A stretch of DNA of 64,000 nucleotides from Dehalococcoidia bacterium (GTDB taxonomy: Bacteria; Chloroflexota; Dehalococcoidia; SHYD01). A program made the position numbers and the translations under genes. Of the stretch, positions 15,754 through 62,767 are shown one piece after another. Position 1 is the first letter of the stretch, and each line of letters opens with the position of its first letter. The notes beneath the pieces were generated by a model. That model was given only the letters and a program-made list of their open reading frames with translations. It was not told the DNA's origin and ran no database searches. The DNA is taken from the NCBI GenBank assembly GCA_965220215.1, contig OZ244809.1:989366-1053365 (forward strand), read 5' to 3'.

Positions 15754-15828
15754 GCCCCTGTAGCTCAGAGGATAGAGCACCGGCCTCCGGAGCCGGGTGC
15801 GAGCGTTCGAGTCGCTCCAGGGGTACCA
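15754..15828 (+). tRNA. tRNA-Arg (anticodon CCG), CCA encoded.
   Basis: Hand-folded cloverleaf. Acceptor GCCCCTG/CAGGGGT with a 1:72 G-U pair, D-arm GCTC/GAGC, anticodon stem CCGGC/GCCGG with loop CTCCGGA (U33, anticodon CCG), T-arm GAGCG-TTCGAGT-CGCTC, and 3' ACCA. Confidence 0.85.
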
Positions 15829-45225: not shown

Positions 45226-45287
45226 TCACCCGACGGCGGGCACTACTCGCCGGACCCTGCGGTGACCATACCAGGCGTCAGCACTCT

Positions 45288-46598: not shown

Positions 46599-46606
46599 CG
46601 CTGCCG

Positions 46607-47656
46607 ATGGCGATTCAGCGAGTGTGCATCTGCCACGTGCAAGTGCCCTTTGTGCGGGGGGGCTCGGAACTACTGGTGGAGAGCCTGCAGCAGGCGTTGC
46701 GGCAGCGCGGTATCGCCACAGACGTGGTGAGCCTCCCCTTCAAGTGGTACCCCAGCCGGGAAGTCCTCACCCACGCGCTCGCCTGGCGTCTCCTCGATCT
46801 CACTGAGAGCCAGGGCCGGCCCATAGACTTGGTCATCGGCACCAAGTTCCCTTCCTATTTGGTACGGCATCCCAACAAGGTCACCTGGCTCTTCCACCAG
46901 TTCCGCCAGGCCTACGACCTTTACGGCAGCCCCTTTGGGGAGTTGACGGACAGCCCGGAAGACCAGGAGGTGCTGAACACCGTGCGGAACATGGACGCAA
47001 CGCTCCTTCCGGAGTCCAAGCGTCTCTATACCATCGCGGGCAACGTGAGCCAGCGGCTGCAACGCTTCAACGGCCTGGACAGCCAGGTCCTCTATCCGCC
47101 GCCGCCATTGGAAAACCGCTACTACTGCGAGGACTACGACAACTACGTCCTCTCCCTGGGGCGGCTAGAGTCCATCAAGCGAGTAGACCTGCTCTTGAAG
47201 AGCGTGCAGCAGGCCAAGGACAAGGTGCGTTGCGTGGTGGCCGGCACGGGGCCGGAAGAGGGCAACCTGAAAGCGCTGGCAAAGGAGCTTGGAATCGAGC
47301 AGCAGGTCACCTTCGCCGGTTACGTATCGGAAGAGGAGCTGCTGGAGCTGTACGCCCGCTGTCGCGCCGTCTACAACGCCCCTTACGATGAGGACTACGG
47401 CTTCGTGACGTTGGAGGCACTGCGGGCGCAGAAGCCCGTCATCGCCACGAACGACTCGGGCGGCGTGCTGGAGTTCGTCCGCCACGAGGAGACCGGCCTC
47501 ATTGCTGAGCCGGAGCCGGCCGCGCTGGCTGCGCTGCTGGATCGCGTGACCGCCGACCCCGACCTCTGCCGGCGCTTGGGCGAGCGGGGCAAGGGTGAAG
47601 TGCAAGACATCTCCTGGGACAAGGTGCTGGATGCCCTCCTTCAAACGGCCCCTTAA
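46607..47656 (+). CDS. Glycosyltransferase family 4 (GT-B fold).
   Basis: The C-terminal GT4 signature EDYGFVTLEALRAQKPVIATNDSGG is present. Confidence 0.85.
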   Translation: MAIQRVCICHVQVPFVRGGSELLVESLQQALRQRGIATDVVSLPFKWYPSREVLTHALAWRLLDLTESQGRPIDLVIGTKFPSYLVRHPNKVTWLFHQFRQAYDLYGSPFGELTDSPEDQEVLNTVRNMDATLLPESKRLYTIAGNVSQRLQRFNGLDSQVLYPPPPLENRYYCEDYDNYVLSLGRLESIKRVDLLLKSVQQAKDKVRCVVAGTGPEEGNLKALAKELGIEQQVTFAGYVSEEELLELYARCRAVYNAPYDEDYGFVTLEALRAQKPVIATNDSGGVLEFVRHEETGLIAEPEPAALAALLDRVTADPDLCRRLGERGKGEVQDISWDKVLDALLQTAP

Positions 47657-49028
47657 GCTGGCCTACTTCAGCCCGCTGCCACCGGAGCCCTCCGGCATCT
47701 CCGATTACAGCCGCGAGCTCCTGCCCTACCTAGCGCGCTGGGCGGAGGTTCATCTCTACATCGACGACTACCAGCTTGCCGATAAGGAGATCGCTTGGGA
47801 GTTCCCAGTATTTAACTATAGAGAGTTCCCTTGGCGTCGCCCGCTCTACGACTACGACTGCACCCTCTACCACTTGGGCAACAGCGCCGTCCACCGCTAC
47901 CTCTACCCCTACGTCTCGCAGCACCCTGGCGTGGTGGTGCTCCATGACTGGGTACTGCACCACTTCCTAGCCGGCCAGGCATTGGACTACGGCCGCTCCG
48001 GCGGGTACGTGCGGGAGATGAGCTACGCTATGGGCCCAGCAGGCGCAAACCTTGCCTGGGAGATCATCGCCGGACAGCGCACGCCGCCTTATTTCGAGCA
48101 GCCCCTCTCCCAACGCACGCTGGACGCCAGCCTGGGCGTGCTGGTGCACAGCGACTATCTGCGCGGGCTGGCCCGGGCCGCCGCGCCAGAAACGCCGGTG
48201 GGCGTGGTGCCCATGGGCATTCCGCTGCCGCCTAATCCCGGCCCAAAACCAATGCTACGGCAGCGTCTTGGTCTGCAAGCTAACGCGTACATAGTCGGCT
48301 CCTTTGGCGTCGCTACCAGCTACAAGCGCATCCCCTCAGTGCTACAGGCTGTCGCGCAGCTTGCCGCCGAGGGCATAGACGCACGCTATGTGGTGGTCGG
48401 CGAAGTGGCGCGCGACCTGGACATCGCCAGGGACGCTGCAGAACTTGGCATCGGCGATCGGGTGCTTGTGACCGGCTACTTGCCAGAGCAGGACTTCAAC
48501 GCCTACCTCCACGCAGTAGATGTGTGCGTGAACCTGCGCTTTCCCACCGCCGGCGAGACCTCGGCGTCTGCGCTTCGCTGTATGGCCGCGGGGCAACCCA
48601 CCCTCGTCTCTAACGTGGACGCCAACCGTGAGCTGCCGGACGAGTGCGTGCTCAAGATACCCGTAGGCGCGCCGGAGGAGGCGATGCTGACGCGGGCGCT
48701 GCGCACGCTGGCAGCGGAACCTTTGGCGAGGCAGGCGTTGGGAAGCGCTGCGCGGGAGTATGTAGCTAGCCACCACACCCTGGAGCAGGCCGCTCGCAGC
48801 TACATCATGTTCCTGGAAGACCTAATTCAGCGGCCGCGGCCCTTACGGGTCACCGCCGCTGCTGATGAACAAATGCGTCCTGCTGCAGGAAGTGGTAACC
48901 TGCAAGAAATTGCTGGCCACTTACGTTCTCTATCTATGGACGCCCATACGCTGACCTGGCTCAGTCCAGTAACGGACGCCATAGCAGACCTGGGCCTGTG
49001 GAAGCCGCAGACAGAAAAAGAAGACTAA
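47631..49028 (+). CDS. Glycosyltransferase family 4-like (GT-B fold).
   Basis: KLAYFSPLPPEPSGISDY at the N-terminus and a C-terminal GT-B motif GETSASALRCMAAGQPTLVSN are present. An internal Met start was chosen. Confidence 0.75.
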   Translation: MPSFKRPLKLAYFSPLPPEPSGISDYSRELLPYLARWAEVHLYIDDYQLADKEIAWEFPVFNYREFPWRRPLYDYDCTLYHLGNSAVHRYLYPYVSQHPGVVVLHDWVLHHFLAGQALDYGRSGGYVREMSYAMGPAGANLAWEIIAGQRTPPYFEQPLSQRTLDASLGVLVHSDYLRGLARAAAPETPVGVVPMGIPLPPNPGPKPMLRQRLGLQANAYIVGSFGVATSYKRIPSVLQAVAQLAAEGIDARYVVVGEVARDLDIARDAAELGIGDRVLVTGYLPEQDFNAYLHAVDVCVNLRFPTAGETSASALRCMAAGQPTLVSNVDANRELPDECVLKIPVGAPEEAMLTRALRTLAAEPLARQALGSAAREYVASHHTLEQAARSYIMFLEDLIQRPRPLRVTAAADEQMRPAAGSGNLQEIAGHLRSLSMDAHTLTWLSPVTDAIADLGLWKPQTEKED

Positions 49029-49036
49029 AGCTCACC

Positions 49037-50104
49037 ATGCAAACCAGCCCGCACGCTAGCTCAAGCACACAGGCCCCCGGCGCGCCGGTGAGCTACTCCC
49101 TCATCATCCCCGTGTACAACGAGGAAGGAAACGTGGAGCCGCTGCACCAGGGGATCGTGCAGGCTATGGAGCAAGTGGAGGGCGACTACGAGATCATCTT
49201 CGTGGACGATGGCAGCCGGGATGCCAGCTTTCCCGAGCTCGCGGGCCTAGCCGAGCGGGACGCACGGGTGCGGGTGGTGCGCCTGCGACGCAACTTTGGG
49301 CAGACACCCGCCATCGCAGCCGGCATTGACCACTCCCGCGGCCAGATCATCGTCTTCATGGACGCAGACCTCCAGAACGACCCCAACGATATTCCCCGCA
49401 TGCTCAGTATGCTAGACGAAGGGTACGACGTGGTCAGCGGGTGGCGGCAGCGACGCCATGACACCTATCTCACCAGGGTTCTACCCTCAAAGCTCGCCAA
49501 CGGCCTTATCTCCTTCATCACCGGCGTCCACCTCCATGACTTCGGGTGTAGCCTGAAGGCCTACCGCCGGGAGGTGCTGGCCCACGTGAACCTCTACGGG
49601 GAAATGCACCGTTTTATCCCCGCCTACGCAGCCTGGGCGGGCGCTTCCATTGCTGAGGTGGTAGTGGAACATCACCCCAGGGTGCGGGGTAGCTCTAAGT
49701 ACGGACTCTCCCGGGCGTTCAGGGTGGTGCTGGACCTGGTGACGGCCAAGTTCCTGTCCAGCTACGCCACCAAGCCCATCTACGTCTTTGGGGGTGTAGG
49801 GCTGTTCTTAGAATCCCTGGCGTTTCTGTGCATCTTCGTAGCGCTTATCCAGAAGTTCACCGCCGACGTGTCGCTCATCCAGACACCGCTCACCATGTTG
49901 TCAGCTATCTTAGGGGCTACCGGGTTCATCGCCATCTTACAGGGGCTCAATGCTGAGGTGACAATGCGCACCTATCATGAGTCGCAACAAAAGCCGACCT
50001 ATGCGGTGCGGCAGGTGCTCAACCCGGCTCCATCGCCAAACGGGGCGCATCCCAGTGAAAGCTCGTCGGCCGGTTCGCAGGTGGGAGAGCATCCTGCTAC
50101 GTAA
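49037..50104 (+). CDS. Membrane-anchored GT2 polyprenyl-phosphate sugar synthase (GtrB/ArnC/DPM-synthase-like).
   Basis: SLIIPVYNEE, FVDDGS and DADLQNDP (DxD) motifs are present, plus two C-terminal TM helices. An internal Met start was chosen. Confidence 0.85.
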   Translation: MQTSPHASSSTQAPGAPVSYSLIIPVYNEEGNVEPLHQGIVQAMEQVEGDYEIIFVDDGSRDASFPELAGLAERDARVRVVRLRRNFGQTPAIAAGIDHSRGQIIVFMDADLQNDPNDIPRMLSMLDEGYDVVSGWRQRRHDTYLTRVLPSKLANGLISFITGVHLHDFGCSLKAYRREVLAHVNLYGEMHRFIPAYAAWAGASIAEVVVEHHPRVRGSSKYGLSRAFRVVLDLVTAKFLSSYATKPIYVFGGVGLFLESLAFLCIFVALIQKFTADVSLIQTPLTMLSAILGATGFIAILQGLNAEVTMRTYHESQQKPTYAVRQVLNPAPSPNGAHPSESSSAGSQVGEHPAT

Positions 50105-50180
50105 TACATTAGAGGCCGGTCAACTGACGCTAGGCGCTAGTGTCGCCGTGGTCTACGATACAAATAAAGAGGAGAACACT

Positions 50181-50651
50181 ATGACCTCAGGAGTGAACCC
50201 CATCCCGGAGGGCTACCATACCGCAACACCCTACCTGATCATAAAGGGTGCGTCAGACGCAATCGAGTACTACCAGCAAGCCTTTGGCGCGGTGGAGCGC
50301 TTCCGCATACCTGGCCCTGATGGGCTCATCGGCCACGCGGAGATCAGCATTGGCGATTCAACCATCGCGCTGGCCGACGAGATGGTAGAGATGGGCTTTA
50401 AGGGCCCCAAGACCCTCGGCGGTTCTCCTATCAGCCTCATGCTCTATGTGACGAACGTAGACGCGGTATTTGCCAGCGCCATTGCCGCCGGCGGAAAAGA
50501 GGTCCGCCCGGTAGAGAACCAGTTCTACGGCGACCGCACCGGCGGCCTGGAAGACCCTTTTGGTCACAGCTGGTATATCTCCACCCACGTAGAGGACGTT
50601 ACCCCGGACGAGCTAGAGCGGCGCGCCGCTGAGATGGCGTCGCAAGAGTAA
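50181..50651 (+). CDS. VOC-family (glyoxalase/PhnB-like) protein.
   Basis: An RBS AAAGAGGAG lies before the ATG. HAEISIGDSTI and FGHSWYIS motifs are present. Confidence 0.75.
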   Translation: MTSGVNPIPEGYHTATPYLIIKGASDAIEYYQQAFGAVERFRIPGPDGLIGHAEISIGDSTIALADEMVEMGFKGPKTLGGSPISLMLYVTNVDAVFASAIAAGGKEVRPVENQFYGDRTGGLEDPFGHSWYISTHVEDVTPDELERRAAEMASQE

Positions 50652-50671
50652 GGAGTACGCTTCGTTAGAGC

Positions 50672-52597
50672 ATGTGCGGCATTGCGGGGGCGGTTGATCT
50701 AACCAGAGCCGAGCCTATTACCAGCGCAGTGATGGGCTCTATGCTGGCGACCCTGCGCCACCGCGGCCCGGACGATGAGGGCACCTACTTTGATGACCAC
50801 ATAGCCCTGGGCGCACGCCGCCTCTCCATCGTCGATCTCGCTGGCGGCCACCAGCCCCTGAGCAACGAGGACGGCAGCGTGTGGGTGGCCCAGAACGGAG
50901 AGATCTTCAACTACCCGGCGTTGCGCTCCCAGCTTGAGACGCGGGGGCACCCCTTCGCCACCAACTGCGATACGGAAGTCCTTACCCACGCCTACGAGGA
51001 GTGGGGCACAGACCTGGTAACCCACCTGAATGGCCAGTTCGCCTTTGCACTGTGGGACAAGGCCCACCAGCGCCTGCTCTTGGCCCGAGACCGAACGGGC
51101 ATCAAGCCCCTCTACTACTGGCACAAGGACGGCGCGCTGGTCTTCGGCTCCGAGTTACGATCAGTTGTCGCTCACCCAGATGCGCCGCAGGAGCTGGACC
51201 TGGCGGCGGTCGACCAGTACCTCACCTACGAGCACATTCCGGTGCCTCGGAGCATCTTCAAGGAGATTGCAAAGTTACCACCGGGCCACATCCTGACGCT
51301 GGACCGTAGCGGCTTAAAGCTGCGCCAGTACTGGGACATGGATCTTGCCCAGAGTGAGCGTGCCCCTGTCCGTTCGGTAGATGAATGGGTGGAAGAGTTC
51401 AGAGCAACGCTTACAGAGGCCATTGGGATGGAGCTAATGAGCGACGTCCCCCTGGGCGTCTTCCTCAGCGGCGGCATCGATTCCAGCACCATAGCAGCGC
51501 TAATGACCGAGGCTGGCGTCAGTGATGTGCAGAGCTTCTCCATCGCGTTCGACGACCCCTCCTTCGATGAGTCCAGCCACGCCCGCCTCGTGGCGCGTCA
51601 CCTGAACACCACCCACCACGAGCGCACCGTCACCGAGACCGAGCTCCTAGACCTTGTCCCCCAGCTTTCGGACATCCTGGACGAGCCCCTGGGCGATTCC
51701 TCCTTCATCCCCAGCTACTTCCTCGCGCAGTTTGCCCGGGAGCACGTGACCGTGGCCCTGGGAGGCGATGGCGGCGACGAGTTACTGGCAGGCTACTCTA
51801 CGCTCCAGGCCCACCGCCTGGCCGATACGTACAATCTGTTGCCCGGCCCGTTGCGCACCAAGATGCTGAATCCCCTGGCCCAGCGGCTCCCCCTCTCCAT
51901 GAACAACATAAGCCTGGACTTTAAGGTGAAACGCTTCACTGCCTGGGCGGATGCGCCACCCATCGTGCGGCACCATCTCTGGCTGGGCTCCTTCTCTCCG
52001 GCTGACAAGCTGTCACTGCTGCGGCCGGAGGTGCGAGAGGCAGCAGGAAATGCTACCTTTGATCTAGCCGCAGACTACTACAATCACGGCGATGCACGAA
52101 AGTCCCTGAACCGCATCCTATATATGGATATGAAGCTCTACTTAGACACGGACATTCTCACCAAGGTGGACCGCTCCAGCATGGCAAACTCCCTGGAGGT
52201 GCGCGTCCCCTTCCTGAACCAGATCGTCCTAGACTTTGCCAGCCGCCTGCCGCTGAACATGAAGCTGCGGGGCTTCACCCGCAAGTACCTCCTTCGTAAG
52301 GCAGTGCGGGACATGATCCCCGCCTCCATCATCAAGCGCCCCAAGAAGGGGTTCAACATGCCCGTGGCTAAGTGGTTCCGCAGCGAGCTTCGGGAACTAC
52401 TGCAGGACACCCTCTCGGAGGGGGCGATCAACCGGGCCGGACTCTTTGAGTACGCGGCCGTGCAGCGGTTGCTGGACGACCACCTGCGGGCGCGGCGGGA
52501 CAATCGCAAGCTGCTCTGGACGCTGTTGGTCTTCCAGCTTTGGCACGATAAGTGGATGTCCCCTCACCAATCCGTACCTATGGTGGCTCCGGCATGA
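50672..52597 (+). CDS. asnB: Asparagine synthase (glutamine-hydrolysing), AsnB/WbpS-like amidotransferase.
   Basis: MCGIAG N-terminal nucleophile and the SGGIDSS PP-loop are present. Confidence 0.9.
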   Translation: MCGIAGAVDLTRAEPITSAVMGSMLATLRHRGPDDEGTYFDDHIALGARRLSIVDLAGGHQPLSNEDGSVWVAQNGEIFNYPALRSQLETRGHPFATNCDTEVLTHAYEEWGTDLVTHLNGQFAFALWDKAHQRLLLARDRTGIKPLYYWHKDGALVFGSELRSVVAHPDAPQELDLAAVDQYLTYEHIPVPRSIFKEIAKLPPGHILTLDRSGLKLRQYWDMDLAQSERAPVRSVDEWVEEFRATLTEAIGMELMSDVPLGVFLSGGIDSSTIAALMTEAGVSDVQSFSIAFDDPSFDESSHARLVARHLNTTHHERTVTETELLDLVPQLSDILDEPLGDSSFIPSYFLAQFAREHVTVALGGDGGDELLAGYSTLQAHRLADTYNLLPGPLRTKMLNPLAQRLPLSMNNISLDFKVKRFTAWADAPPIVRHHLWLGSFSPADKLSLLRPEVREAAGNATFDLAADYYNHGDARKSLNRILYMDMKLYLDTDILTKVDRSSMANSLEVRVPFLNQIVLDFASRLPLNMKLRGFTRKYLLRKAVRDMIPASIIKRPKKGFNMPVAKWFRSELRELLQDTLSEGAINRAGLFEYAAVQRLLDDHLRARRDNRKLLWTLLVFQLWHDKWMSPHQSVPMVAPA

Positions 52598-53613
52598 AGC
52601 AACGTCTGCTGCAGTACCTGGTCTGCCCCCGCTGTGGAGACGCCCTCTCCCTGACCGGTGACGCAGCTGCTGAGGAGGTGCTGGCGGGCGAGCTGCGGTG
52701 CGCCTCCGGCGACCACCGCTTCCCCATCACGGGTGGCATCCCCCGCCTGTTGCCGCCGGAGCTGGCGCAGGACGTGCAGCGCACCTCAGACAACTTTGGC
52801 TGGCAGTGGTTGGAGTTCAGCACACTCCATCCTTCAGAAGACCTCTACCAGAGCCAGTTTCTGGACTGGATATACCCCATCCAGCCGGATTATTTCACGG
52901 ATAAGGTGGTGCTGGACGCGGGCTGCGGCATGGGGCGCTTTGCGCTGGCCTCCGCAGAGTTTGGGGCCAAGGACGTGCTTGCCATAGACGTGAGCGAGGC
53001 GGTGGAGGCAGCCTATGCCAACACCCGCCACATGCCCAACGTTCACGTTATCCAGGCGGACATCTACAACCTGCCCTTCAAGCAACCGCTGGACTTTGCA
53101 TTCTCTATCGGCGTGCTCCACCACCTACCCAACCCCGAGGGCGGCTTCCGCGCGCTGGTGCGGCACCTAAAGCCGGGCGGGACTGTCTTTGCGTGGGTGT
53201 ACGGACGGGAGAACAACGGCTGGATCGTCAACATCGTGAGTCCGCTGCGGAGCAAGGTGTTCTCGCGGCTCCCTCGCATGGCGCTCTACAGCTTCTCCCT
53301 CTTGGCCGCTCTCATGGTGCACCCTACCCTCAAGCTGCTGTATCGCCCAGCTAACACCTGGTCCTTTCTCAAGCCTCTGACTAAGATACTGCCCTACAAC
53401 GGCTACTTGAGCTGGCTAGCCCAGTTTGGCTTCCGCCACAACCACCACGTGATCTACGACCACCTGGCCGCACCCACCGCTTTCTACATCAGCCGCCAGG
53501 AGTTCCAGGAGTGGTTCCGCCGCGCCTCCCTTTCCCAGCCCACTATCTCCTGGCGCAACCAGAATAGCTGGCGCGGCTGGGCAGTGCTGGAACATGCGGG
53601 TCCTAGCGCTTAA
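52594..53613 (+). CDS. Class I SAM-dependent methyltransferase with an N-terminal Trm112-like zinc ribbon.
   Basis: YLVCPRCGDAL and motif I VLDAGCGMGRF are present. Confidence 0.75.
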   Translation: MKQRLLQYLVCPRCGDALSLTGDAAAEEVLAGELRCASGDHRFPITGGIPRLLPPELAQDVQRTSDNFGWQWLEFSTLHPSEDLYQSQFLDWIYPIQPDYFTDKVVLDAGCGMGRFALASAEFGAKDVLAIDVSEAVEAAYANTRHMPNVHVIQADIYNLPFKQPLDFAFSIGVLHHLPNPEGGFRALVRHLKPGGTVFAWVYGRENNGWIVNIVSPLRSKVFSRLPRMALYSFSLLAALMVHPTLKLLYRPANTWSFLKPLTKILPYNGYLSWLAQFGFRHNHHVIYDHLAAPTAFYISRQEFQEWFRRASLSQPTISWRNQNSWRGWAVLEHAGPSA

Positions 53614-54766
53614 CTACGAGTTCCCTCCTCTGGGCGGCGGCGCCGCCAACGCGACGGCCCATATCTGTAGGGAACTGGTGCATCTTGGCTGCACCGTAGA
53701 AGTGATCACCTCCGGCTTCTCCGGCCTGCCAAAGCAAGAAGAGCTGGACGGCTACCGGGTGCGCCGCGTGCCCGTGCTGCGCCGCAAGACGCACCAGAGC
53801 TCGCCCTTAGAGATGGTGACCTACGTCGCCAGCGCGCTCGTTCCAGCGCTTCGCCTTAGCCACTCCTTCAAGCCGGACATCGTTCACGCCTACTTCGCCA
53901 TGCCCACAGGGCTCATCGCGCTTGCGCTCAAGACCTTCACCGGCGCGCCCTATCTCCTCTCCCTGCGAGGCGGCGACGTTCCCGGCTTCCTGCCGGAGAC
54001 CTTGGGCACGTTCCACCGCCTGACCGGCCCCTTCGCCAAGCCGGTGTGGGGCCGGGCCGGCGCCATTGTGGCAAACAGCCAGGGCCTACAGGAGTTGGCT
54101 CAGCACACGTCGCCCATTCATGTGGAGCTTGCCCCCAACGGCATCGATCTCGAGTTCTACCGCCCGCCGGCTACTCCGCGCAACGATGGCGTCTACCGCA
54201 TCCTTTTCGTGGGAAGGCTGGTGGAACAGAAGGGGCTCCGTTATCTACTGGACGCGCTGCCCGGTCTGCGCACGCAGGCGCAACAACCCGTGGAGCTAGT
54301 AGTAGTAGGCGACGGTCCCGCCCGTCTGACGCTGGAGGAGCAGGTGAGCGCCCTTGGTCTGGAAGCAGCGGTTCGCTTTGCCGGTTGGGCGCAGCGCGCC
54401 GAGATGCCCGGCCACTATCAATCAGCGGATGTCTTTGCTTTGCCCTCCTTCGAGGAGGGTATGCCCAACGTAGTGCTGGAAGCTATGGCCTCCGGGCTGC
54501 CCGTTGTCACAACGGACATCTACGGCAACCGAGAACTGGTAGCCCACGAAGAGAACGGCCTGCTCTTTCCCCCGGCCAGCGTCCAAGCCCTGGAAGCGGC
54601 GCTGCTTCGCCTCGCGCGGGAGCCGGAAGCTCGCCGTGGGATGGGCGATCGCTCCCGCGCACGAGCGCAGGACTACGGCTGGGGTCGAACTGCGCAGACC
54701 TACTGGGAGTTAAGCCAGCGGGTCATCACCAGGCGGCGCGAAGGTCACGTGGCGGCGGGCGTCTGA
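53594..54766 (+). CDS. Glycosyltransferase family 4.
   Basis: MRVLALNYEFPPLGGGAA at the N-terminus and EGMPNVVLEAMASGLPVVTTDIYGNRE at the C-terminus are present. Confidence 0.9.
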   Translation: MRVLALNYEFPPLGGGAANATAHICRELVHLGCTVEVITSGFSGLPKQEELDGYRVRRVPVLRRKTHQSSPLEMVTYVASALVPALRLSHSFKPDIVHAYFAMPTGLIALALKTFTGAPYLLSLRGGDVPGFLPETLGTFHRLTGPFAKPVWGRAGAIVANSQGLQELAQHTSPIHVELAPNGIDLEFYRPPATPRNDGVYRILFVGRLVEQKGLRYLLDALPGLRTQAQQPVELVVVGDGPARLTLEEQVSALGLEAAVRFAGWAQRAEMPGHYQSADVFALPSFEEGMPNVVLEAMASGLPVVTTDIYGNRELVAHEENGLLFPPASVQALEAALLRLAREPEARRGMGDRSRARAQDYGWGRTAQTYWELSQRVITRRREGHVAAGV

Positions 54767-55011
54767 TGCGCATGCTATTCGCAGCCGCCGGGCGTCTAAT
54801 ACGCATGCTATTCGTGACTGGCGGGCGTCTGATGCGCATGTTATTCGCAGTCGGTGGGCGTCTGATACGCGTGCTGTTCGCAGTCGGTGGGCGTCTGATG
54901 CCCATGCTAATCGCAGCCGGCAGGCGTCTGGTGCCCATGCTAATCGCAGCCGGCGAGCGTCTGATACTCGTGCTAATCGTAGCCGGGGAGCGTCTGATGC
55001 GCATACTATCC
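54748..55011 (+). repeat. Eight tandem copies of a diverged 33-bp repeat (consensus about gcagycggbgggcgtctgatgcgcatgctattc). In frame, it encodes 11-residue repeats A-x-G-G-R-L-h-R-h-L-F.
   Basis: Seen directly in the sequence. The units start at about 54748, 54781, 54814, 54847, 54880, 54913, 54946 and 54979. Each contains the ATGCGCAT palindrome or a variant. The units differ by synonymous or conservative changes. Confidence 0.9.
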
Positions 55012-56013
55012 GCGGTTGGCCGACGTCCCGCGCTGCGCGCCGCTGCGCAGGCGCTCTTTAGCCTGGCGCTCCTGACCTGGCTCTTCACCCGAATTGATGT
55101 CGCCCAACTTGCGGAGGCGCTCCTCACTACCGACCTCACCCTCTGGGCAGCGGGACTGGCAACAGCCGTAGCTGCGTGGCTGCTGAATACCGCCAAGTGG
55201 CGGGTGTTACTGCGAGCGCTGGGCTATCCCAGCCCCTATCTCAAACTCCTTGGCTTAAACTTTATCGGCATGTTCTACAGCATCGTCCTGCCCGGCCAGG
55301 TTAGCGGCGAGGTGGTCAAAGGCTTCCGGCTGGCCCGGCAGGGCGTGCCCTCCGGCCCGACCACAATGACCATCACCCTGGACCGTCTCACCGGCCTCGT
55401 CGCGCTGGGGCTGCTGGGCCTGGCGGGACTGCTCCTCGCGCCGCCGCCCTTCCCCAGCGGACCGTTCCTCGCCCTCTCCGCGCTGGTTGTGCTGGCCGCC
55501 GCCAGCCCTATTGTGCTGCTGGTCCTTCGTCCCTCCCCACACCCGGCACAGCCCCCTCCCAGCGACCTCAACCTGCTGCAACGCTTTCTCTATCAGGCCC
55601 AGGAGGCCATTGCCACCTACCGCCGGTCGCCCCAAGTGCTGGCATTAGCTCTGGTCCAAGCGCTTGGCTTCCAGGCGCTGGTCGCGGTATCTAACTACCT
55701 TATCGCCCTGGGCGTCGGCGTGCAGGTGTCGCCCATTGCGTTGCTTTGGATCGTGTCGGTGGTATCCCTGGTGAGCATGCTGCCGCTGGCGCTGGGGGGA
55801 CTCGGCCTGCGCGAGGGCGCGTATGCGTTCCTGCTGCTGCAGTATGGCGTGCCCCTCTCCCTCGGCATCTCCCTCTCCCTAGGCGTGTTCGGAGTTATCC
55901 TTACGCTTAGCGTCATGGGCGGCGTAGTAGAGGCCCTCTGGCCCCGGCTGGCCGGTGATGCCACAAACGCTACCCCAACGCCCCTGGAGAGCACCGAACC
56001 CCAACACCGGTAG
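54766..56013 (+). CDS. UPF0104 / flippase-like-domain membrane protein with an N-terminal 8 x 11-residue amphipathic repeat region.
   Basis: ATG 54766 overlaps the TGA stop of the GT4 gene (tgATGcgcATG). After the repeats the sequence reads LNTAKWRVLLRALGYPSPYLKLLGLNFIGMFYSIVLPGQVSGEVVKGFRL, matching the lysylphosphatidylglycerol-synthase TM region / flippase-like family. It is a paralog of the partial gene at the window start. Confidence 0.7.
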   Translation: MRMLFAAAGRLIRMLFVTGGRLMRMLFAVGGRLIRVLFAVGGRLMPMLIAAGRRLVPMLIAAGERLILVLIVAGERLMRILSAVGRRPALRAAAQALFSLALLTWLFTRIDVAQLAEALLTTDLTLWAAGLATAVAAWLLNTAKWRVLLRALGYPSPYLKLLGLNFIGMFYSIVLPGQVSGEVVKGFRLARQGVPSGPTTMTITLDRLTGLVALGLLGLAGLLLAPPPFPSGPFLALSALVVLAAASPIVLLVLRPSPHPAQPPPSDLNLLQRFLYQAQEAIATYRRSPQVLALALVQALGFQALVAVSNYLIALGVGVQVSPIALLWIVSVVSLVSMLPLALGGLGLREGAYAFLLLQYGVPLSLGISLSLGVFGVILTLSVMGGVVEALWPRLAGDATNATPTPLESTEPQHR

Positions 56014-56019
56014 CGCGCC

Positions 56020-59000
56020 ATGATCGCTGCACAGCTTCTTTTTTACTTTGCCTTGAGCCTGGGGCTACTGAGCTACCTGGGCTACGGCCCGGCGCGCCTC
56101 CTGCTCCCGGAGCAGTATCGCCGCTGGCGGCTGTTGCTCGTGCCTCTCCTGGGTTTGTGCGCCACCGTGGTGCTCTCCTCCTTCCTGAACTACCTACTGC
56201 CCATGACCCAGGTCACCTGGCTCATCCTAGCCGCCGCGACGGTGCTGAATGCGACGCTCGTCTGGCGCAGCCGCTCCTTAGGACTCGACAAGCCTACTAG
56301 AACGGACGGCGTCGTGCTGGCCTTAATGGCTGTTGCCTATCTGCTGGGCGTACTGCCCCTTATCCACGATGGCACCACCGCTTTCCTTGGCCTCCAGTGG
56401 GATCTTGAGCTCTACCTCCCCCTCACCGAGTACTTGAAACGTTATCCCATGGGCCTGCCATTTACTGCGTTCCCTAACCCTCTCCTGGACGCTATTAACT
56501 CCGCCCCGGTGCGCGGCGGCTCTGGCTGGGGCTTCTCCTACCTGGACGCGTTCCTGGGAACCGTCGTAGGCCACGCCTCCTTCGAGACCTTCCGGCCAAC
56601 GCTGCACCTGGTGTTCGCGTTGAGCGTACCCGCCGTCTACCTGTTCTGCCGCGGCGGCCTGGCAATGGGCGCGGGCGCGGCGCTGCTGGCGGCTGCCCTT
56701 ACCGCAACCAACGGCCTCAACCTCTGGATCGCTTCTATGGGGCTGGCAGGCCACGCCGTGACGTTCAGCGCGCTGCCCTTAGCCTTCACTGCAACCCTGT
56801 GGGCGCTGCGCGATGGCACCCGGCGATCAGTCATGCTGGCCGGACTCTGCGCCGCGACACTCCTACTCTCCTTCTACACCGGCGCGGTCGTCCTCTACGC
56901 CCTGGGTGTCGGAGGGGCCGGCCTAGCGTTGCTCGTCCGATCCACGCAACGGCGGGCTACCATCGTTACCGGGCTGGGCATCGCCGCCGCAACCTTGGCC
57001 TTCGGCGCGGCGGGACATCTGCGCTTTCTGGAGCTACTGCCCCTCTACTTCCAACAAGGCTTCAGCGGCGGCTGGCAGGTCAACCAATTCAGTCCTATCA
57101 GCCAGGGGCTGGGCCTTACCCCCTACGAACTGGTAGTGCAGCGCCTGGGCAGCAGCACCGCCTGGGACTGGCTCTCCCCAAACATCCTCAATTTAGCGGC
57201 GATCATGCTCACACTGGGAGCAGCGGCGTTCACTGCCGCGGCGCTTCGGCGGGGCAACTGGGATCGCACCGCCTTCATTGCGTTGCTGCTTGTCTTCGTC
57301 GCGTTCGGACTCTATCTCCGCTACGTAAGTGCGTACCCCTACGGCTACTTCAAGCTCATCTCCCTCAGCGCGTTCCTGCTGGCCGCCGGCCTAGCTCAAG
57401 GCATCGCGACGCTCTGGGCCTGGTCCTCGGCGCAGCACGTCCCGCGCCCTGGCCCGGGCGCGGCATTGGGCAGCGCAGTGGCAGACAAGGCTTCGTTGCT
57501 ACTACCGAGACTTGCCCAGAGCCGCCTTGCCACAGCAGCGCGCGGCGGCATGCTCCTTTACGGGCTGCTCTTTCTCGCCCTCCTTAGCCACAACTCCCTA
57601 CTGAGCGTGCGCTTCTTCTGGCAGCCCGACCCGGACGAGCTGCCTCGTGCCACCTGGGAGCTGCACGCGCTACAGAGCATCGTTCCTGCGGGAGCTCCCG
57701 TGCTCCTGAGCAGCCGCTCCAGCTTTGAGCCCCGCTTTGCAGGCATGGTGGCCTACTTCTTGATAGACAGCCCCATCACCGGCGATGCCAAGACCGCCTA
57801 CGGACAGGTGGAGAGCAACCGCCCTGATATGGACTACGAGTACATGGTGCTGCAAGCCAGTGAGCGAGCCGACGTCCGCGGCCTGTCGCCGGAGGATCTG
57901 GTGTGGCAGAACGACCTAGTGGCCCTCTATCAGCGGCCTGAACAATGGCTGGAGGACATCGACCTGGAGAGCGTGCGCAGCCCTTTCCTCTTGAGCAGCC
58001 GCCAGCCCGCTACCCTTTCGCTCTCGCCTGGTGGGTGGGACATTGCTTCCGGCGGGACACGCTTTGAGGACGCGCCGCTGGCAGCGGACGGCCCGCTTCA
58101 GGTTGAGTACACCTTCCTGAGCTTTGCGGACGTGACGGCGCAGGTCAAGGGTCCGCAGTCCACTATCGACGTGAAGCTGCCAGCGGGCCTCTCCACCTAC
58201 CGCACCCAGGCGCTACCCCTCCCAACACTCCTGGAGCTTTCTCTGGCCGATACCTCCACCCCAGCCTGGTTGCTCAACGTGCGGCTGCAAGCGCCCGAGA
58301 GCGCCACGGCCGCACTAACACACTTCCCGGACACCCTCGCGCTACGCCCAACCGTCCGTTCCGGCGACGGGCAAGCGCAGCTCTCCCTGGACTACTCCTT
58401 TGGCGACTCCCGCGGCGGTTCAGTCTCGCTGGCCGCAGAGCTGTATCAGCAGAGCGGTCAAGACCGAGCGCTGCGCCCCAGCGGCTTCTGGCGGTTGGAG
58501 GAGCTCAAGGCCGCGGGCTTTGGCAGCAGCAGCTTCCTGCTAAACACGGCCGACTGGCAGTGCGGCGTCACGCCCACCGACCTCTTCCCTGCCACACAAA
58601 CTGCCCTAGAGGACGGCGCGTATCAGGTCCACCTGGCTGCATATTATGTTAACGAAGAGGTGGGCCGCTGGCCCTGGCTCTCATTCACCGTCCAGCAGGG
58701 GAAGATCATAGACACTCGCTCCGTAGACCTCCCGCCCTACCAGTTGCTCTACCTCTCGCCGCCGCAAGACGTGCGGGGCATGGCGGAGGCGCTCCCGGCC
58801 GGCGCGCAGGTCTACCTTCCCCCGCTCATCCAGCCCAACACCTCCTTCCAGCGGGTCGCGGTGGCTAGCCTCCAGGACCGCCGCTTCTACACCGACGCTC
58901 CTACCTTCTTCCCCGGCGCGCTGCCGGCCTCTCCTAGCCAGGTATACGGCTACGGTTTGCTGCCAGCCGAGGCAGTCCCGGCAGACTGGGGCTTCCTGCC

Positions 59001-59559
59001 CAAGGCGCTGTGGTCGAACGACCAGACGGCGCTCTACCCGCGCGATCCCAACAGCACCCAGCCGAGCGCTCGGTTAGGCGCAAGCAACGCGACCAGCGAG
59101 CAGTTCTCTGAGAGCACGCTGGTGGTGGATGCCGAAGCTACCCTCAGTGCTACAGGCGCTCACGTCACGCTCGCGACCCGCGGCAGCGTGCCCCCGGGCG
59201 CAGTCCTGGGCGTCGATATCTACGGCGAGTCCGCCTGCAACGTGCAGCACTTCGGCTACTGGGCGACCCCATTGGATGCTCCATCCTCTGAGCTGCGCAT
59301 CGATCTCAACCTCCCGCAGCAACAGGGGAGCATCTCAAGCGCCAGTAGTGGTGCGCTACCTGCCCTCACCGAAGTCTGGCCGGTGCACCCCGGCTCCTTC
59401 CGCGCCTTCCTCTTCTACAAGGACGGCGACCGCTACGAGACCTCGCCCCTCTTTGAGTTCACTCTAACGCCCGAGGGGATCACCCGCACCCGCACCTACC
59501 CGCAGACCATGCGTATTCCTTTAGGGAGCAATAGTGGCCATACAAGCTACGCCCGGTAG
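56020..59559 (+). CDS. Large (1179 aa) polytopic membrane protein with a roughly 700-aa extracytoplasmic C-terminal domain; a putative GT-C-type glycosyltransferase or polymerase.
   Basis: About 13 N-terminal TM helices followed by a long soluble domain. The Emb/Aft-like architecture is only inferred; no family motif was confidently recognised. Confidence 0.5.
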   Translation: MIAAQLLFYFALSLGLLSYLGYGPARLLLPEQYRRWRLLLVPLLGLCATVVLSSFLNYLLPMTQVTWLILAAATVLNATLVWRSRSLGLDKPTRTDGVVLALMAVAYLLGVLPLIHDGTTAFLGLQWDLELYLPLTEYLKRYPMGLPFTAFPNPLLDAINSAPVRGGSGWGFSYLDAFLGTVVGHASFETFRPTLHLVFALSVPAVYLFCRGGLAMGAGAALLAAALTATNGLNLWIASMGLAGHAVTFSALPLAFTATLWALRDGTRRSVMLAGLCAATLLLSFYTGAVVLYALGVGGAGLALLVRSTQRRATIVTGLGIAAATLAFGAAGHLRFLELLPLYFQQGFSGGWQVNQFSPISQGLGLTPYELVVQRLGSSTAWDWLSPNILNLAAIMLTLGAAAFTAAALRRGNWDRTAFIALLLVFVAFGLYLRYVSAYPYGYFKLISLSAFLLAAGLAQGIATLWAWSSAQHVPRPGPGAALGSAVADKASLLLPRLAQSRLATAARGGMLLYGLLFLALLSHNSLLSVRFFWQPDPDELPRATWELHALQSIVPAGAPVLLSSRSSFEPRFAGMVAYFLIDSPITGDAKTAYGQVESNRPDMDYEYMVLQASERADVRGLSPEDLVWQNDLVALYQRPEQWLEDIDLESVRSPFLLSSRQPATLSLSPGGWDIASGGTRFEDAPLAADGPLQVEYTFLSFADVTAQVKGPQSTIDVKLPAGLSTYRTQALPLPTLLELSLADTSTPAWLLNVRLQAPESATAALTHFPDTLALRPTVRSGDGQAQLSLDYSFGDSRGGSVSLAAELYQQSGQDRALRPSGFWRLEELKAAGFGSSSFLLNTADWQCGVTPTDLFPATQTALEDGAYQVHLAAYYVNEEVGRWPWLSFTVQQGKIIDTRSVDLPPYQLLYLSPPQDVRGMAEALPAGAQVYLPPLIQPNTSFQRVAVASLQDRRFYTDAPTFFPGALPASPSQVYGYGLLPAEAVPADWGFLPKALWSNDQTALYPRDPNSTQPSARLGASNATSEQFSESTLVVDAEATLSATGAHVTLATRGSVPPGAVLGVDIYGESACNVQHFGYWATPLDAPSSELRIDLNLPQQQGSISSASSGALPALTEVWPVHPGSFRAFLFYKDGDRYETSPLFEFTLTPEGITRTRTYPQTMRIPLGSNSGHTSYAR

Positions 59560-61516
59560 CGGAGCCGCGCCAGTTAGTGTAGCGAGGGGAAGAAGCGTCT
59601 GGCGCGCACTCCTGCACCGAGACGCCATCCTTGTTGGGGCGCTCTTTCTGCTCACACTAGGCATCAGCATCCCCAACCTGGAGCACAACCCGCCGCTCTC
59701 CTACGATGAGGGCTACGTGTTGCAAACGCCTCACAACTTGCTGACGCGGGGCTTCTACGGAACCTGGGCTAAGAGCTGGAACCTCCCCTTTGATACCTAC
59801 ACCAGCACCGGCCCCACCGTCCTGCTGCCAGTCGCTGCCAGCTTTGCAGTCTTTGGGGAGGGCGTGGTGCAAGCCCGCATGGTCGTTGTTATCTATGGCG
59901 CTCTAGCGGCAGCGGCCGGGTACGCGCTCTTCCGGCTCACCCTAAGCCGCGGCCTCGCGCTCTTGGCAGCGCTGCTTCTGTCTCTCTCCCTCTACCCCTA
60001 CCAGCGCAGCGTCTTGGGAGAGGTCCCAGGCCTCTTCTGGCTGCTGCTAGGATGCTGGCTCTGGCTTCGGGCCATCGAGCGCGGCGGCCACACCCGGTTG
60101 CTCGCCCTCGCGGGTGCGGCCTGGGGCGCAGCGGCCCTCACTAAGCTGGCTCTCGGCCCCATTGTGCTGGGCGGGCTGGCGCTTTGCTGGCTGCGTTTCA
60201 GGTTCGGAGCAAAGGATGCTTATCTTGCGCCCCGCTCGCTCTACTTGCCTCTGGCGGCTGCACTGCTGCCCCTGCTGCTGTGGTACGGCCTGCAAGCCGT
60301 CATCCTGGGCGGCGACACAGTAGTAGACCGTCTGGCGACGGTATGGACGTACCAGCCTCAGGTGGCTGCTGCGACGCCCGGCGGCATCCTCCAGAATGCG
60401 CTGGCTCTGCCCACCATCTTGCCTCAAGGGCTGCTTGTGTGGATGGGGCCAGTCGTTCTTGTCATCTTCTCCTGGTTACTCATCTCACCCACGCCCGCTA
60501 GGACACTCCCTGCAGCTATGTGGCTTATGTTCCTGGGCTTCTATCTTGTTTCCGTTGGATGGCCCCGCTACGGCTTCTGGGCTGTGGCCCTTACCGCCGC
60601 TTTCACCGCGCAGCTCATTCCCTTGCTACGCGCCGCGCTCCCAACCCTCGGCCAACGACAACAGCAAGCCGTAACCGGTGTCATCATCGCGGCACTGGTA
60701 GCGCCCCTTGCCCTCTGGAACTGGAGCGCACTGGAGCGGGTCGATGCAAGCCCCCAAGAGGTCGTCTCGCTCTTACAGGGGCAGGTAGCTCCCCAGGAAA
60801 ACATAGGGAGTACCGAGTGGGAGCTAGTCTTTCTGCTGGGTCAGGAAGTAGAGGTCCCACTTCTCCGCATCGCCACAGCAGTCTCAGAAACGGGGACGGG
60901 CAACAACGACTCGGCCTGGCCCGAGACCGACTGGGTGGTCACCGGCCCCATAGGCGATTTCCTAGGCACAACGACCAAGCTCGTGGAGAACGATTCGTTC
61001 TTGGAGCGCAGCGTCGTAGGACCCTACCGCATCTTCCAGCGCACTGCGGGGCCGCCGCCCGGCTGGCGATGGAGCACGGCGGGTGCGACGGCGATCTCTC
61101 TCGCGCCTGGTGCTACCATCGGTCAGTCATTCACCGCCGACTACGACGTGCTCACAGAGGTGCGCTTGCTCATCGCGGGAGGTAACGGGCGTAGCAATGC
61201 TCCGGTGCGGCTGGCGCTGTATGCAGACCCCCGCGGCGGCGCGCCCTTAGCCACCGCAACGCTCTCCGGCGCCCAGCTCACGGAGAACAAATGGTACACT
61301 TTCCCAATAGGACGGCTTGCAGTGACAAAAGGCGACCGCTACCACATTGAGGTCACGGGGCTGGAGCAGCCTGGCAAGGTTGCACCCGGCCTTTGGTACA
61401 ACTCCTCCGCAGACCTCTATCCTTCCGGCAACTGGTACAGCAACGGAACCTCCCAGCAAGGCGACCTCTACTTCGGGCTGCTGGGGCACAACAACACGCA
61501 ACGTAGGGGCTCCTGA
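59534..61516 (+). CDS. GT-C-fold glycosyltransferase, family 39/83-like (ArnT/PMT-type; polyprenyl-phosphate-sugar dependent).
   Basis: The first extracytoplasmic loop carries the DE motif PPLSYDEGY after TM1. About 11 TM helices, then a roughly 250-aa C-terminal soluble domain. Confidence 0.65.
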   Translation: MAIQATPGSGAAPVSVARGRSVWRALLHRDAILVGALFLLTLGISIPNLEHNPPLSYDEGYVLQTPHNLLTRGFYGTWAKSWNLPFDTYTSTGPTVLLPVAASFAVFGEGVVQARMVVVIYGALAAAAGYALFRLTLSRGLALLAALLLSLSLYPYQRSVLGEVPGLFWLLLGCWLWLRAIERGGHTRLLALAGAAWGAAALTKLALGPIVLGGLALCWLRFRFGAKDAYLAPRSLYLPLAAALLPLLLWYGLQAVILGGDTVVDRLATVWTYQPQVAAATPGGILQNALALPTILPQGLLVWMGPVVLVIFSWLLISPTPARTLPAAMWLMFLGFYLVSVGWPRYGFWAVALTAAFTAQLIPLLRAALPTLGQRQQQAVTGVIIAALVAPLALWNWSALERVDASPQEVVSLLQGQVAPQENIGSTEWELVFLLGQEVEVPLLRIATAVSETGTGNNDSAWPETDWVVTGPIGDFLGTTTKLVENDSFLERSVVGPYRIFQRTAGPPPGWRWSTAGATAISLAPGATIGQSFTADYDVLTEVRLLIAGGNGRSNAPVRLALYADPRGGAPLATATLSGAQLTENKWYTFPIGRLAVTKGDRYHIEVTGLEQPGKVAPGLWYNSSADLYPSGNWYSNGTSQQGDLYFGLLGHNNTQRRGS

Positions 61517-61522
61517 TCTATC

Positions 61523-62767
61523 GTGACGGCTGAACCGGCGTCCAACACCCCAGAAGGACAGCCTGGTTCTGCCCGTACCGGCTCCCTGGCCGAGGTCGCG
61601 GCGCTTTTCTTTAAACTCGGCTGCATTGGCTTTGGAGGGCCGGCAGCACACATCGCGATGATGCGGGCTGAGGTGGTGGAACGCCGCAAGTGGCTCAGCG
61701 ACGAGGAGTTTCTCGACCTGCTAGGCGCCACCAACCTGATACCAGGCCCCAACTCCACGGAGCTGGCTATCCACCTGGGGTATCGCCGGGCCGGCTGGGC
61801 CGGACTGGTGGCCGCAGGCGTCTTGTTCATCAGTCCGGCTGTGGCGATTGTGCTGGCACTGGCATGGGCCTATATGGCTTATGGCAGCCTGCCCCAGGCC
61901 CAATGGCTGCTTTATGGCGTAAAGCCCGTGATCATCGCCATTGTCCTCCAAGCCTTGTGGGGACTGGGGCGCACTGCCTTCAAGCAACCTCTATCCATAG
62001 TCCTCACAATAGCCGTCATTGCGCTCTACCTCTGGGGCGTCAACGAGCTAGCTCTCCTCTTTGGCGGCGGCTTGGCCATGCTCGTGATCCAAGGCGGTCG
62101 CAAGCTAATCGCTAAGTTCAGCGCATCTGCCCTCGCACTCGTAGCGCCTGCTAGCTCCGCGCCCGCCGCTCTAAGCGCCGTGACCGCAATGGCTGCTCCC
62201 TTCAGCCTCACCACCCTCTTCCTCACATTCCTCAAGATCGGTTCCGTGCTCTACGGCAGCGGCTATGTCCTCCTGGCATTCTTGCGAGGCGACCTCGTGG
62301 AGCGCCTCGGCTGGTTGACCGACCAGCAGCTACTGGACGCCGTCTCAGTGGGCCAGTTCACGCCCGGCCCTGTTTTTACCACCGCAACCTTTGTGGGCTA
62401 CGTAGCCGGGTATGAACACAGCGGTCTGGTGATGGGCGGCATAACGGCAGCTTTGCTCGCCACACTTGGCATCTTTCTACCCTCTTTCGTCTTCGTTGCC
62501 ATCTCCGGCCCGCTCGTCCCCCATCTGCGGCGTTGGACTGTCACCGCCTTATTGCTCACCGGTGTGAATGCCGCCGCCCTCGGCCTCATGGCTGCGGTGA
62601 CCCTGGTCCTGGCCCGCGCCGCCTTGCTCGATCCCTTCACGGTTGTCCTTGCCATTGCAGCGCTTGTCGTCCTGTTGCGCTGGAACGTGAACTCCGGCTG
62701 GATTGTGCTGGCTGGAGGCCTGTTGGGCATTGCGTGGCGATTCGGTACACTAGCAGTGAGTATCTAG
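61523..62767 (+). CDS. chrA: Chromate-ion transporter (CHR family, long two-domain form).
   Basis: FFKLGCIGFGGPAAHIAMM...LIPGPNSTELA in the first half and the duplicated motif FLKIGSVLYGSGYVLLAFL...FTPGPVFTTATFVGY in the second half. Confidence 0.85.
   Translation: MTAEPASNTPEGQPGSARTGSLAEVAALFFKLGCIGFGGPAAHIAMMRAEVVERRKWLSDEEFLDLLGATNLIPGPNSTELAIHLGYRRAGWAGLVAAGVLFISPAVAIVLALAWAYMAYGSLPQAQWLLYGVKPVIIAIVLQALWGLGRTAFKQPLSIVLTIAVIALYLWGVNELALLFGGGLAMLVIQGGRKLIAKFSASALALVAPASSAPAALSAVTAMAAPFSLTTLFLTFLKIGSVLYGSGYVLLAFLRGDLVERLGWLTDQQLLDAVSVGQFTPGPVFTTATFVGYVAGYEHSGLVMGGITAALLATLGIFLPSFVFVAISGPLVPHLRRWTVTALLLTGVNAAALGLMAAVTLVLARAALLDPFTVVLAIAALVVLLRWNVNSGWIVLAGGLLGIAWRFGTLAVSI

Follow-up and report, generated by a model that had tools for sequence, protein, structure and literature searches.

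Tandem repeats that vary in number between strains have been described in several settings. In the in-frame coding variable-number tandem repeats (VNTRs) of bacterial envelope-related genes, head-to-tail units with a length that is a multiple of 3 are polymorphic without a frame break, internal units are gained and lost, and the locus belongs to the biosynthesis of the cell surface. In the VNTRs made of mycobacterial interspersed repetitive units (MIRU-VNTR), tandem repeats lie between operon genes at a start codon, and an open reading frame (ORF) through the repeat preserves the stop/start overlap and the coupling (PMC12548453). At the protein level, an exact 11-residue periodicity is found in 11/3 helices of lipid surfaces (apolipoproteins, alpha-synuclein, perilipins, LEA proteins), while flippase-like proteins of family PF03706 occur alone (YbhN/UPF0104, TIGR00374) or as flippase subdomain 1 of MprF, a protein that crosses the membrane an even number of times and has its C-terminal synthase domain in the cytoplasm (PMC8131360). 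Here we describe a locus that can be compared with these systems, an array of 33-bp units at the junction between a glycosyltransferase (GT4) gene and a flippase-like gene in Dehalococcoidia bacterium (GenBank assembly GCA_965220215.1, contig OZ244809.1). The DNA analysed is a stretch of 64,000 nucleotides (positions 989,366 to 1,053,365 of the forward strand), called the window below; all coordinates refer to it.

On balance, we think that the array is a strain-polymorphic minisatellite that arose by tandem duplication of 33 bp across the TGATG junction of the two genes, and that it probably adds a young, dispensable helical tail to the flippase-like protein. The features of the junction are as follows.

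53594-54766, plus strand: GT4 glycosyltransferase gene, 390 aa (Pfam Glycos_transf_1 8e-44, Glyco_transf_4 1.9e-21); the gene call is identical on independent assemblies
54764-54768, plus strand: TGATG stop/start overlap (-1 nt), consisting of the GT4 TGA (54764-54766) and the first in-frame flippase ATG (54766-54768)
54766-56013, plus strand: flippase-like ORF from the first ATG, 415 aa, with LPG_synthase_TM (PF03706; 4.2e-44; residues 94-380, ~55045-55905) as its only Pfam domain
54748-55011, plus strand: eight 33-bp units a-h, read in register (starts 54748, 54781, 54814, 54847, 54880, 54913, 54946, 54979)
55012-55044, plus strand: degenerate ninth unit, in register, which is the native N-terminal segment AVGRRPALRAA
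54997-54999, plus strand: last-unit ATG (Met78), the canonical start of the 338-aa protein of most conspecific strains (homologues start MR(V/I)LSA)
54987-54990, plus strand: GGAG, a Shine-Dalgarno (SD)-like motif 6 nt upstream of the last-unit ATG

The array shares with the coding VNTRs all the properties listed above. Unlike them, its unit is the boundary of two genes and carries both the stop of the upstream frame and the start of the downstream frame; half of the array peptide comes from an out-of-frame reading of the upstream gene, and translation of the array is only predicted. The position between operon genes at a start codon and the strain-variable copy number are shared with MIRU-VNTRs. 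MIRU units measure ~46-101 bp, compared with 33 bp here. MIRUs are dispersed over many loci and apparently mobile, whereas the unit of the array is derived from the junction and was found at one locus (window and JGI scan), in a host from a different phylum. The small ORF of a MIRU ends at the downstream start, in contrast to the ORF of the array, which overlaps the GT4 stop at its 5' end and does not terminate at the downstream start, continuing in frame into the downstream protein. The array departs from VNTRs and MIRUs in that the repeat is locally derived from a junction, is fused in frame to the downstream protein and would make new coding sequence out of upstream codons read in another frame.

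Structure and origin of the array

The initial annotation of this DNA had reported a 33-bp repeat in eight copies that begins at the GT4 stop/start overlap and lies in the flippase frame, and both statements hold. According to Tandem Repeats Finder, the array spans 54753-55013 (period 33, 7.9 copies, 80% matches, 0 indels, score 305), and reading in register gives the eight units and the degenerate ninth listed above. As a head-to-tail run of a 10-100 bp unit beyond chance, the array is a minisatellite; the rest of the window contains no further array scoring >67.

Each unit joins 18 nt from the 3' end of the GT4 gene, which the unit presents in another frame, to the 15 nt that open the flippase gene. 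The 5' part corresponds to the last six GT4 codons and reads xxGGRL in the flippase frame, and the 3' part reads MRxL(F/S). From this composition it follows that the array is a tandem duplication of the gene junction. A stop codon of the GT4 frame (TGA or TAA) is present in every unit, and the start position of the flippase frame mostly holds ATG, GTG or ATA (ATA in units b, d and g; GTG in unit f). A CGGCxGGCGTC match (about 10/11-10/12) is found between the ninth unit and the unit 33 nt upstream, in single-unit alleles too; it is suggestive of a microhomology that may have seeded the first duplication, with the limit that it is equalled or bettered at other offsets.

In the flippase frame units a-h read (R/A/V)xGG RL(M/I/V)(R/P/L)(M/V/I)L(F/I/S), and the motif A-x-G-G-R-L that had been ascribed to every unit was overstated, as there are exceptions at several positions. 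The units are ~20% diverged from one another. Their variable columns are spread over codon positions 1/2/3 as 6/6/7, with changes that include G->R/E and R->P/L, which contradicts the earlier view that the differences are mostly synonymous or conservative. Likewise, the perfect ATGCGCAT palindrome had been attributed to each unit and is present only in units 1, 3 and 8 of the 8.

Allowing <=3 mismatches, the consensus unit was found at the array locus only in the 64-kb window (0 matches expected from 100 dinucleotide-preserving shuffles), which speaks against the possibility, considered at the outset, that the repeat is a non-coding element common elsewhere in the genome. A scan of JGI metagenome contigs with a degenerate pattern gave a single match, at an unrelated gene junction on L013 (we use L numbers as labels for the loci compared). 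With one locus in the window and this lone unrelated match, a dispersed repeat element is ruled out as far as testable. The L013 match (Ga0315287_10053488, ~1184-1208, reverse strand) is a near-identical junction, GGGGCGTCTGATGCGCGTACTGTTCG, at another TGATG stop/start overlap; the gene behind it begins MRVLFVVHGFPP, there is no tandem repeat, and we regard the resemblance as due to chance.

Folding of the array RNA is no better than that of shuffles (z = -0.19) and Rfam has no family at the array, and a role in RNA structure was ruled out on these two results. A promoter/terminator scan around the junction found nothing. We note that an antisense ORF of 156 aa (54726-55196, minus strand) spans the array and has the same third-codon positions as the flippase frame.

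Copy number and overlap among relatives

Out of 22 distinct alleles obtained by expanding two 90%-identity protein clusters, ~18 encode proteins that start MR(V/I)LSA..., corresponding to Met78 of the window protein, and have 1 unit. The array-bearing distinct proteins are four in number: one of 415 aa (8 units), two of 426 aa (9 units each) and one of 434 aa, which has 10 units and lacks 3 residues at the C-terminus. In contig DNA, exactly 1 unit is found in L004, L005, L008 and L009 (the last being the GTDB representative, a Dehalococcoidia metagenome-assembled genome), 9 units in L003 and L006, and 10 in L007, and two independent Logan assemblies of short reads carry the 8-unit array of the window at 100% identity. 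The allele classes seen are 1 and 8-10 units only, with no intermediates. It had been anticipated that copy number could vary between strains without breaking the frame, and this is what the 1, 8, 9, 9 and 10 units, as multiples of 11 codons, show.

The unit order is a b c d e f g h in the window, a b c d d' d e f g h' in L007, a c d d' d e f g h'' in L006 and a' b c' x d* e* f* g h'' in L003. Judged by this order, the arrays are homologous and differ by gain and loss of internal units. The flanking DNA differs by 2-5.6% between these genomes, which places them in one species.

TGATG is found at the junction in the window and in all conspecific loci, including the single-unit L004, L008 and L009. 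Two orthologues, L014 (74% identity; ATGA) and L015 (62%; TGATG), keep the overlap and have no repeat, and the conserved -1 or -4 nt overlap that marks translational coupling is therefore seen in the window, the conspecifics and both of these. Among homologues of <=74% identity none has an N-terminal extension, and the more distant ones have short N-termini. Since the outgroups have the overlap without the repeat, the ancestral state is one junction without duplication, presumably coupled in translation, and the origin of the array lies inside the species. As far as these comparisons go, the feature is a lineage-specific, strain-polymorphic minisatellite and not a conserved architecture; an amphipathic module fused to a flippase, as the initial annotation had it, is missing from most conspecific strains and from all other homologues. 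Two apparent GT4-flippase fusions, P0006 (L005 4001-5122; 373 aa) and P0029 (656 aa), were rejected as artefacts of assemblies with many frameshifts; in L005 the GGG run ahead of the junction contains one additional G, and the genes nearby are broken up.

The arrays are less diverged than their surroundings in some pairs of genomes. The window and L007 do not differ anywhere in units a-g (231 nt), where ~10 differences would be expected from flanks that are 4.3-4.8% different, and the units that L006 has in common with the window are identical as well. The L003 array differs from that of the window at 12/264 positions, in line with the flanks. The 200 nt right of the array (55012-55211) form a divergence hot spot, with 16-26 differences/200 nt vs ~5-12 elsewhere in the flanks. 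The two N-terminal haplotypes, AVGRRPALRAA and AAGRHPTLRAV, each occur with array-bearing and with single-unit alleles. From the presence of arrays on both haplotypes, we infer that the array allele moved between lineages by recombination, with breakpoints near the array ends.

Evidence for and against translation of the array

We hold production of the extension, perhaps in addition to the canonical form, to be fairly probable. The 33 bp of the unit equal 11 codons, and from the ATG that overlaps the upstream stop the array reads in frame into the PF03706 ORF. Between orthologous units of the window and L003, 9/12 differences fall at third codon positions of the flippase frame (binomial p 0.004; p 0.009-0.02 after removal of concerted changes). 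The ratio of synonymous to nonsynonymous differences in this array comparison is 7:5 in the flippase frame and 1:10 in the other two forward frames, and for the same pair of genomes the GT4 gene (27/39 differences at third positions) and the flippase core (28/49) show the same pattern as the array. The promoter/terminator, Rfam and RNA-folding results given above likewise offer no hint of a different role for the array. Termination-reinitiation is reported to require an overlap or a very short spacer, and a distance of ~20 nt almost abolishes it (PMC10666635; review PMC12548453); the canonical ATG lies 231 nt downstream of the first ATG. As the ancestral overlap with the GT4 stop survives in the first copy, ribosomes most likely reinitiate at the ATG of that copy and continue through the array.

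The mechanism we propose starts with 33 bp straddling the presumably translationally coupled GT4/flippase junction, in a cell-envelope glycosylation operon, which would have been duplicated in tandem. Ribosomes finishing GT4 would reinitiate at the first ATG and read the array in frame, and the N-terminus would gain 77 residues in the window strain and 88-99 in other strains. Half of each repeat would be new coding sequence, supplied by the 3' end of GT4 read out of frame. The GGAG ahead of the last-unit ATG may permit direct initiation of the 338-aa protein, and both isoforms may exist. Such an extension would be a young and dispensable accessory, tolerated and perhaps mildly constrained, neither essential nor an ancient domain.

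Several observations weigh against translation. The third-position bias rests on 10-12 substitutions, some of them concerted; four of the inter-allele substitutions are ATG<->ATA and possibly due to gene conversion, and the same-phase antisense frame fits the bias equally. The differences from unit to unit lack such a bias. The open frame is uninformative, as three other frames are open too and almost no codon is one mutation from a stop, and ORF openness was discarded as coding evidence for these reasons. Among the 13 in-frame start candidates in the array, only the last-unit ATG is preceded by an SD-like motif (GGAG), and several internal units have lost their ATG. This downstream Met, in MRILSAVG, was the start named in the initial annotation as one that would leave the repeats untranslated, and it is the canonical start in most strains. 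Compared with window genes, the array (54766-55011) is rich in the minor codons CTA (7/16 Leu vs 8%), ATA (4/7 Ile vs 14%), CGT (7/13 Arg vs 13%) and GCA, and its G+C content at third codon positions (GC3) is 0.66 vs 0.74; the minor codons appear to be largely inherited from the ancestral unit and are not decisive. Finally, the helix predicted for the extension (see below) has only moderate confidence scores.

Much of this would also be accommodated if the array were an untranslated intercistronic spacer, with the functional 338-aa form started at ATG 54997 by its SD motif and the coupling to GT4 loosened or lowered; whatever is made from the first ATG would then be incidental. We regard this as possible, if doubtful. 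It agrees with the use of Met78 as the canonical start in ~18/22 conspecific alleles and in all other homologues, with the onset of the Pfam domain 16 residues past Met78, and with a GGAG at -10 that stands before ATG 54997 only (in unit h of all four array alleles and in no single-unit allele). It also agrees with the replacement of ATG by ATA (units b, d, g) or GTG (f), with the minor-codon enrichment and lower GC3, and with the lack of third-position bias among units. However, the first ATG overlaps the GT4 stop as in the ancestral junction, and reinitiating ribosomes should start there and occupy the array in frame; the substitutions between orthologous arrays are coding-like; an SD core is found in only 7/25 long ORFs of the window, so SD is not the dominant initiation signal; and the GGAG itself may be a chance by-product of a GAG codon that it has in common with unit g.

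Coming back to the translated array, we consider it likely to be an in-frame coding VNTR, with translation that is plausible and not proven. What had been claimed earlier about translation stands in part: the preserved overlap, the third-position bias between orthologous arrays and the AlphaFold helix make it plausible, and the argument from synonymy between units fails.

Predicted properties of the extension

With an alignment of 29 sequences, AlphaFold predicts residues 2-83 as one continuous helix (predicted local distance difference test score, pLDDT, 56-79). The hydrophobic moment of the extension peaks sharply at 98.2 degrees per residue, at 0.38 (0.38-0.46) vs 0.095 +/- 0.049 in whole-sequence shuffles, in agreement with the 11/3 periodicity noticed at first. 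The observed moment is reached by 11% of controls in which a randomly permuted unit is repeated eight times, so that most of the 11/3 amphipathicity comes from the exact repetition of 11 residues and a designed 11/3 module is unsupported. The amphipathicity is an accident of which 11 residues got duplicated.

The mean hydrophobicity is 0.65-0.95 on the Fauchere-Pliska scale vs 0.24 for alpha-synuclein, and the polar face is made of R/G/A only, with no K/E/D pattern and a longest charge-free stretch of <=9 residues. No Pfam match was found for residues 1-93. A phmmer search with residues 1-88 against 1.84 billion representatives gave 26 matches; the nine examined are unrelated periodic or low-complexity sequences, none of them PF03706. 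A known repeat-protein family was ruled out by these Pfam and phmmer results.

The topology of MprF together with the Arg-rich native N-terminus points to a cytoplasmic N-terminus. The modelled peptide would be one long, very hydrophobic helix, in which a narrow stripe of arginines is set against a wide hydrophobic face, located at the cytoplasmic membrane face before the first transmembrane segment, in or on the inner leaflet, and it would not be a classical class-A 11-mer repeat. With the 11/3 helices of lipid surfaces it shares the exact 11-residue periodicity, the predicted continuous helix and a single polar stripe. It differs from them in having no homology, in being far more hydrophobic, in a stripe of Arg/Gly/Ala only, in a periodicity that arose by recent duplication of DNA, and in a peptide that even conspecific strains do not conserve. 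The features by which such repeats are recognised (a moment beyond that given by repetition, moderate hydrophobicity with a K/E/D face, and homology or conservation) were all absent from the array, which does not belong to the apolipoprotein, synuclein and perilipin repeats with which it was initially compared.

A stronger version of translation is that the array is a positively selected young segment, a ~120-Angstrom arginine-striped helix born de novo that modulates the flippase-like protein, with its allele spreading by homologous recombination. We judge this rather unlikely. In our opinion it is unlikely outright that the product of the array is a functional module under selection, namely an 11/3 amphipathic helix of the apolipoprotein/synuclein/perilipin kind that would lie on the membrane surface and modulate the flippase-like domain. 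The sharp moment peak, the continuous predicted helix and the coding-like substitutions between alleles are what such a helix would lead one to expect, and the identity of the array allele across diverged flanks could reflect recent spread under selection. Against this stand the distribution of the module, which most conspecific strains and all other homologues are without, the permuted-unit controls, the high hydrophobicity and R/G/A polar face, and the lack of a Pfam match or of related sequences among the examined phmmer matches. Moreover, duplication of a gene boundary explains the motif without selection for amphipathicity.

Other explanations for the repeat

Given that copy number is strain-dependent, that internal units have been gained and lost, and that the locus lies in a cell-envelope glycosylation operon (GT2, GT4, PMT_2, flippase-like), the array could also be a contingency or expression-tuning locus, in which slippage would reversibly tune the amount or activity of the flippase and create envelope heterogeneity, e.g. 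against phages. We find this quite improbable. The unit is a multiple of 3, which gives no frame switching, and there is no promoter-like site nearby, and hence neither the frame switching nor the promoter-spacing switching of phase-variable contingency loci is found in the array. Divergence of ~20% between units suppresses slippage, there are no intermediates between 1 and 8-10 units, and the identity of the 8-unit array in three independent assemblies (the window and two from Logan) indicates stability and not hypermutability.

An assembly or sequencing artefact is hardly credible: nothing speaks for it save the error-rich assemblies of relatives (L005, with many frameshifts), and against it are the 100% identical array in the window and two independent Logan assemblies and the 9-10-unit arrays in circular-looking 2.2-2.35 Mb contigs and one 0.79 Mb contig from other samples.

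The flippase-like protein and its operon

The Pfam check agreed with the initial annotation of the downstream gene as flippase-like: the PF03706 match scores 151.7 bits vs a gathering cut-off of 33.4 and covers profile positions 3-296 of 302. AlphaFold models the flippase core with pLDDT 85-98, and the top six PDB matches found by Foldseek are all MprF (9j8q, 9goe, 7duw, 7f47, 6lvf, 9j8s), with probability 1.00, E-values of 1e-4 to 7e-4 and TM-scores (query) of 0.47-0.53. By profile and predicted structure, the protein is flippase-like and has the MprF transmembrane flippase fold. It resembles MprF flippase subdomain 1 and the stand-alone PF03706 proteins in the match of residues 94-380, in a core that superposes on MprF and in its glycosyltransferase neighbours. 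Unlike MprF, it has no synthase domain, and unlike other PF03706 proteins, it has a 77-residue repeat extension; among the family members found, only the conspecific array alleles are extended.

The junction lies inside a tightly packed run of ~13 plus-strand genes (44341-62767). The first part of the run encodes, in order, NAD kinase, a methyltransferase, two GT4-like proteins, GT2, a glyoxalase-fold protein, an asparagine-synthase-like amidotransferase and a methyltransferase; the last part encodes GT4, the flippase-like protein, a 1179-aa membrane protein, PMT_2 (GT-C) and a chromate transporter (61523-62767). The gene that follows the flippase-like gene is given here in the same form as the features above.

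56020-59559, plus strand: gene for an 1179-aa membrane protein with no Pfam match, starting 6 nt after the flippase stop, in the same operon

All conspecific loci, and also the relative at 62% identity (L015; 1193 aa), have this gene in synteny, and a PMT_2 (GT-C) gene follows it; the membrane protein may act in the same pathway as an uncharacterised glycosyltransferase or a polymerase. Judged by gene context only, the operon would be a typical envelope-glycoconjugate pathway in which the PF03706 protein would move a lipid-linked intermediate, and the GT2/GT4/PMT_2 surroundings suggest a lipid-linked glycan or glycolipid as the substrate of the flippase.

We note that many stops and starts in the 44341-62767 run overlap or nearly abut. 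In the gene calls of relatives, the methyltransferase starts on an ATGA overlap with the stop of the asparagine-synthase gene, and the GT4 start overlaps the end of the methyltransferase gene by 20 nt. The sole Rfam match in the window is a tRNA gene (15754-15825, 63.9 bits).

Significance

If the array is not translated, it is a polymorphic intercistronic minisatellite with little wider consequence. In either case, the locus is a strain marker for an uncultured Dehalococcoidia lineage, and it calls for caution in annotation: the 'flippase-like' database proteins of 415, 426 and 434 aa are length variants of the 338-aa protein and represent no new domain architecture.

If the array is translated, it would be a clean natural case in which a gene boundary gave rise to new protein sequence in a single step. 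Duplication at the site of overlap would have left the upstream protein and the coupling signal intact while adding to the downstream membrane protein a repetitive helix that derives in part from out-of-frame sequence. Alleles with and without the extension coexist in one species, which makes a direct comparison of its effect possible.

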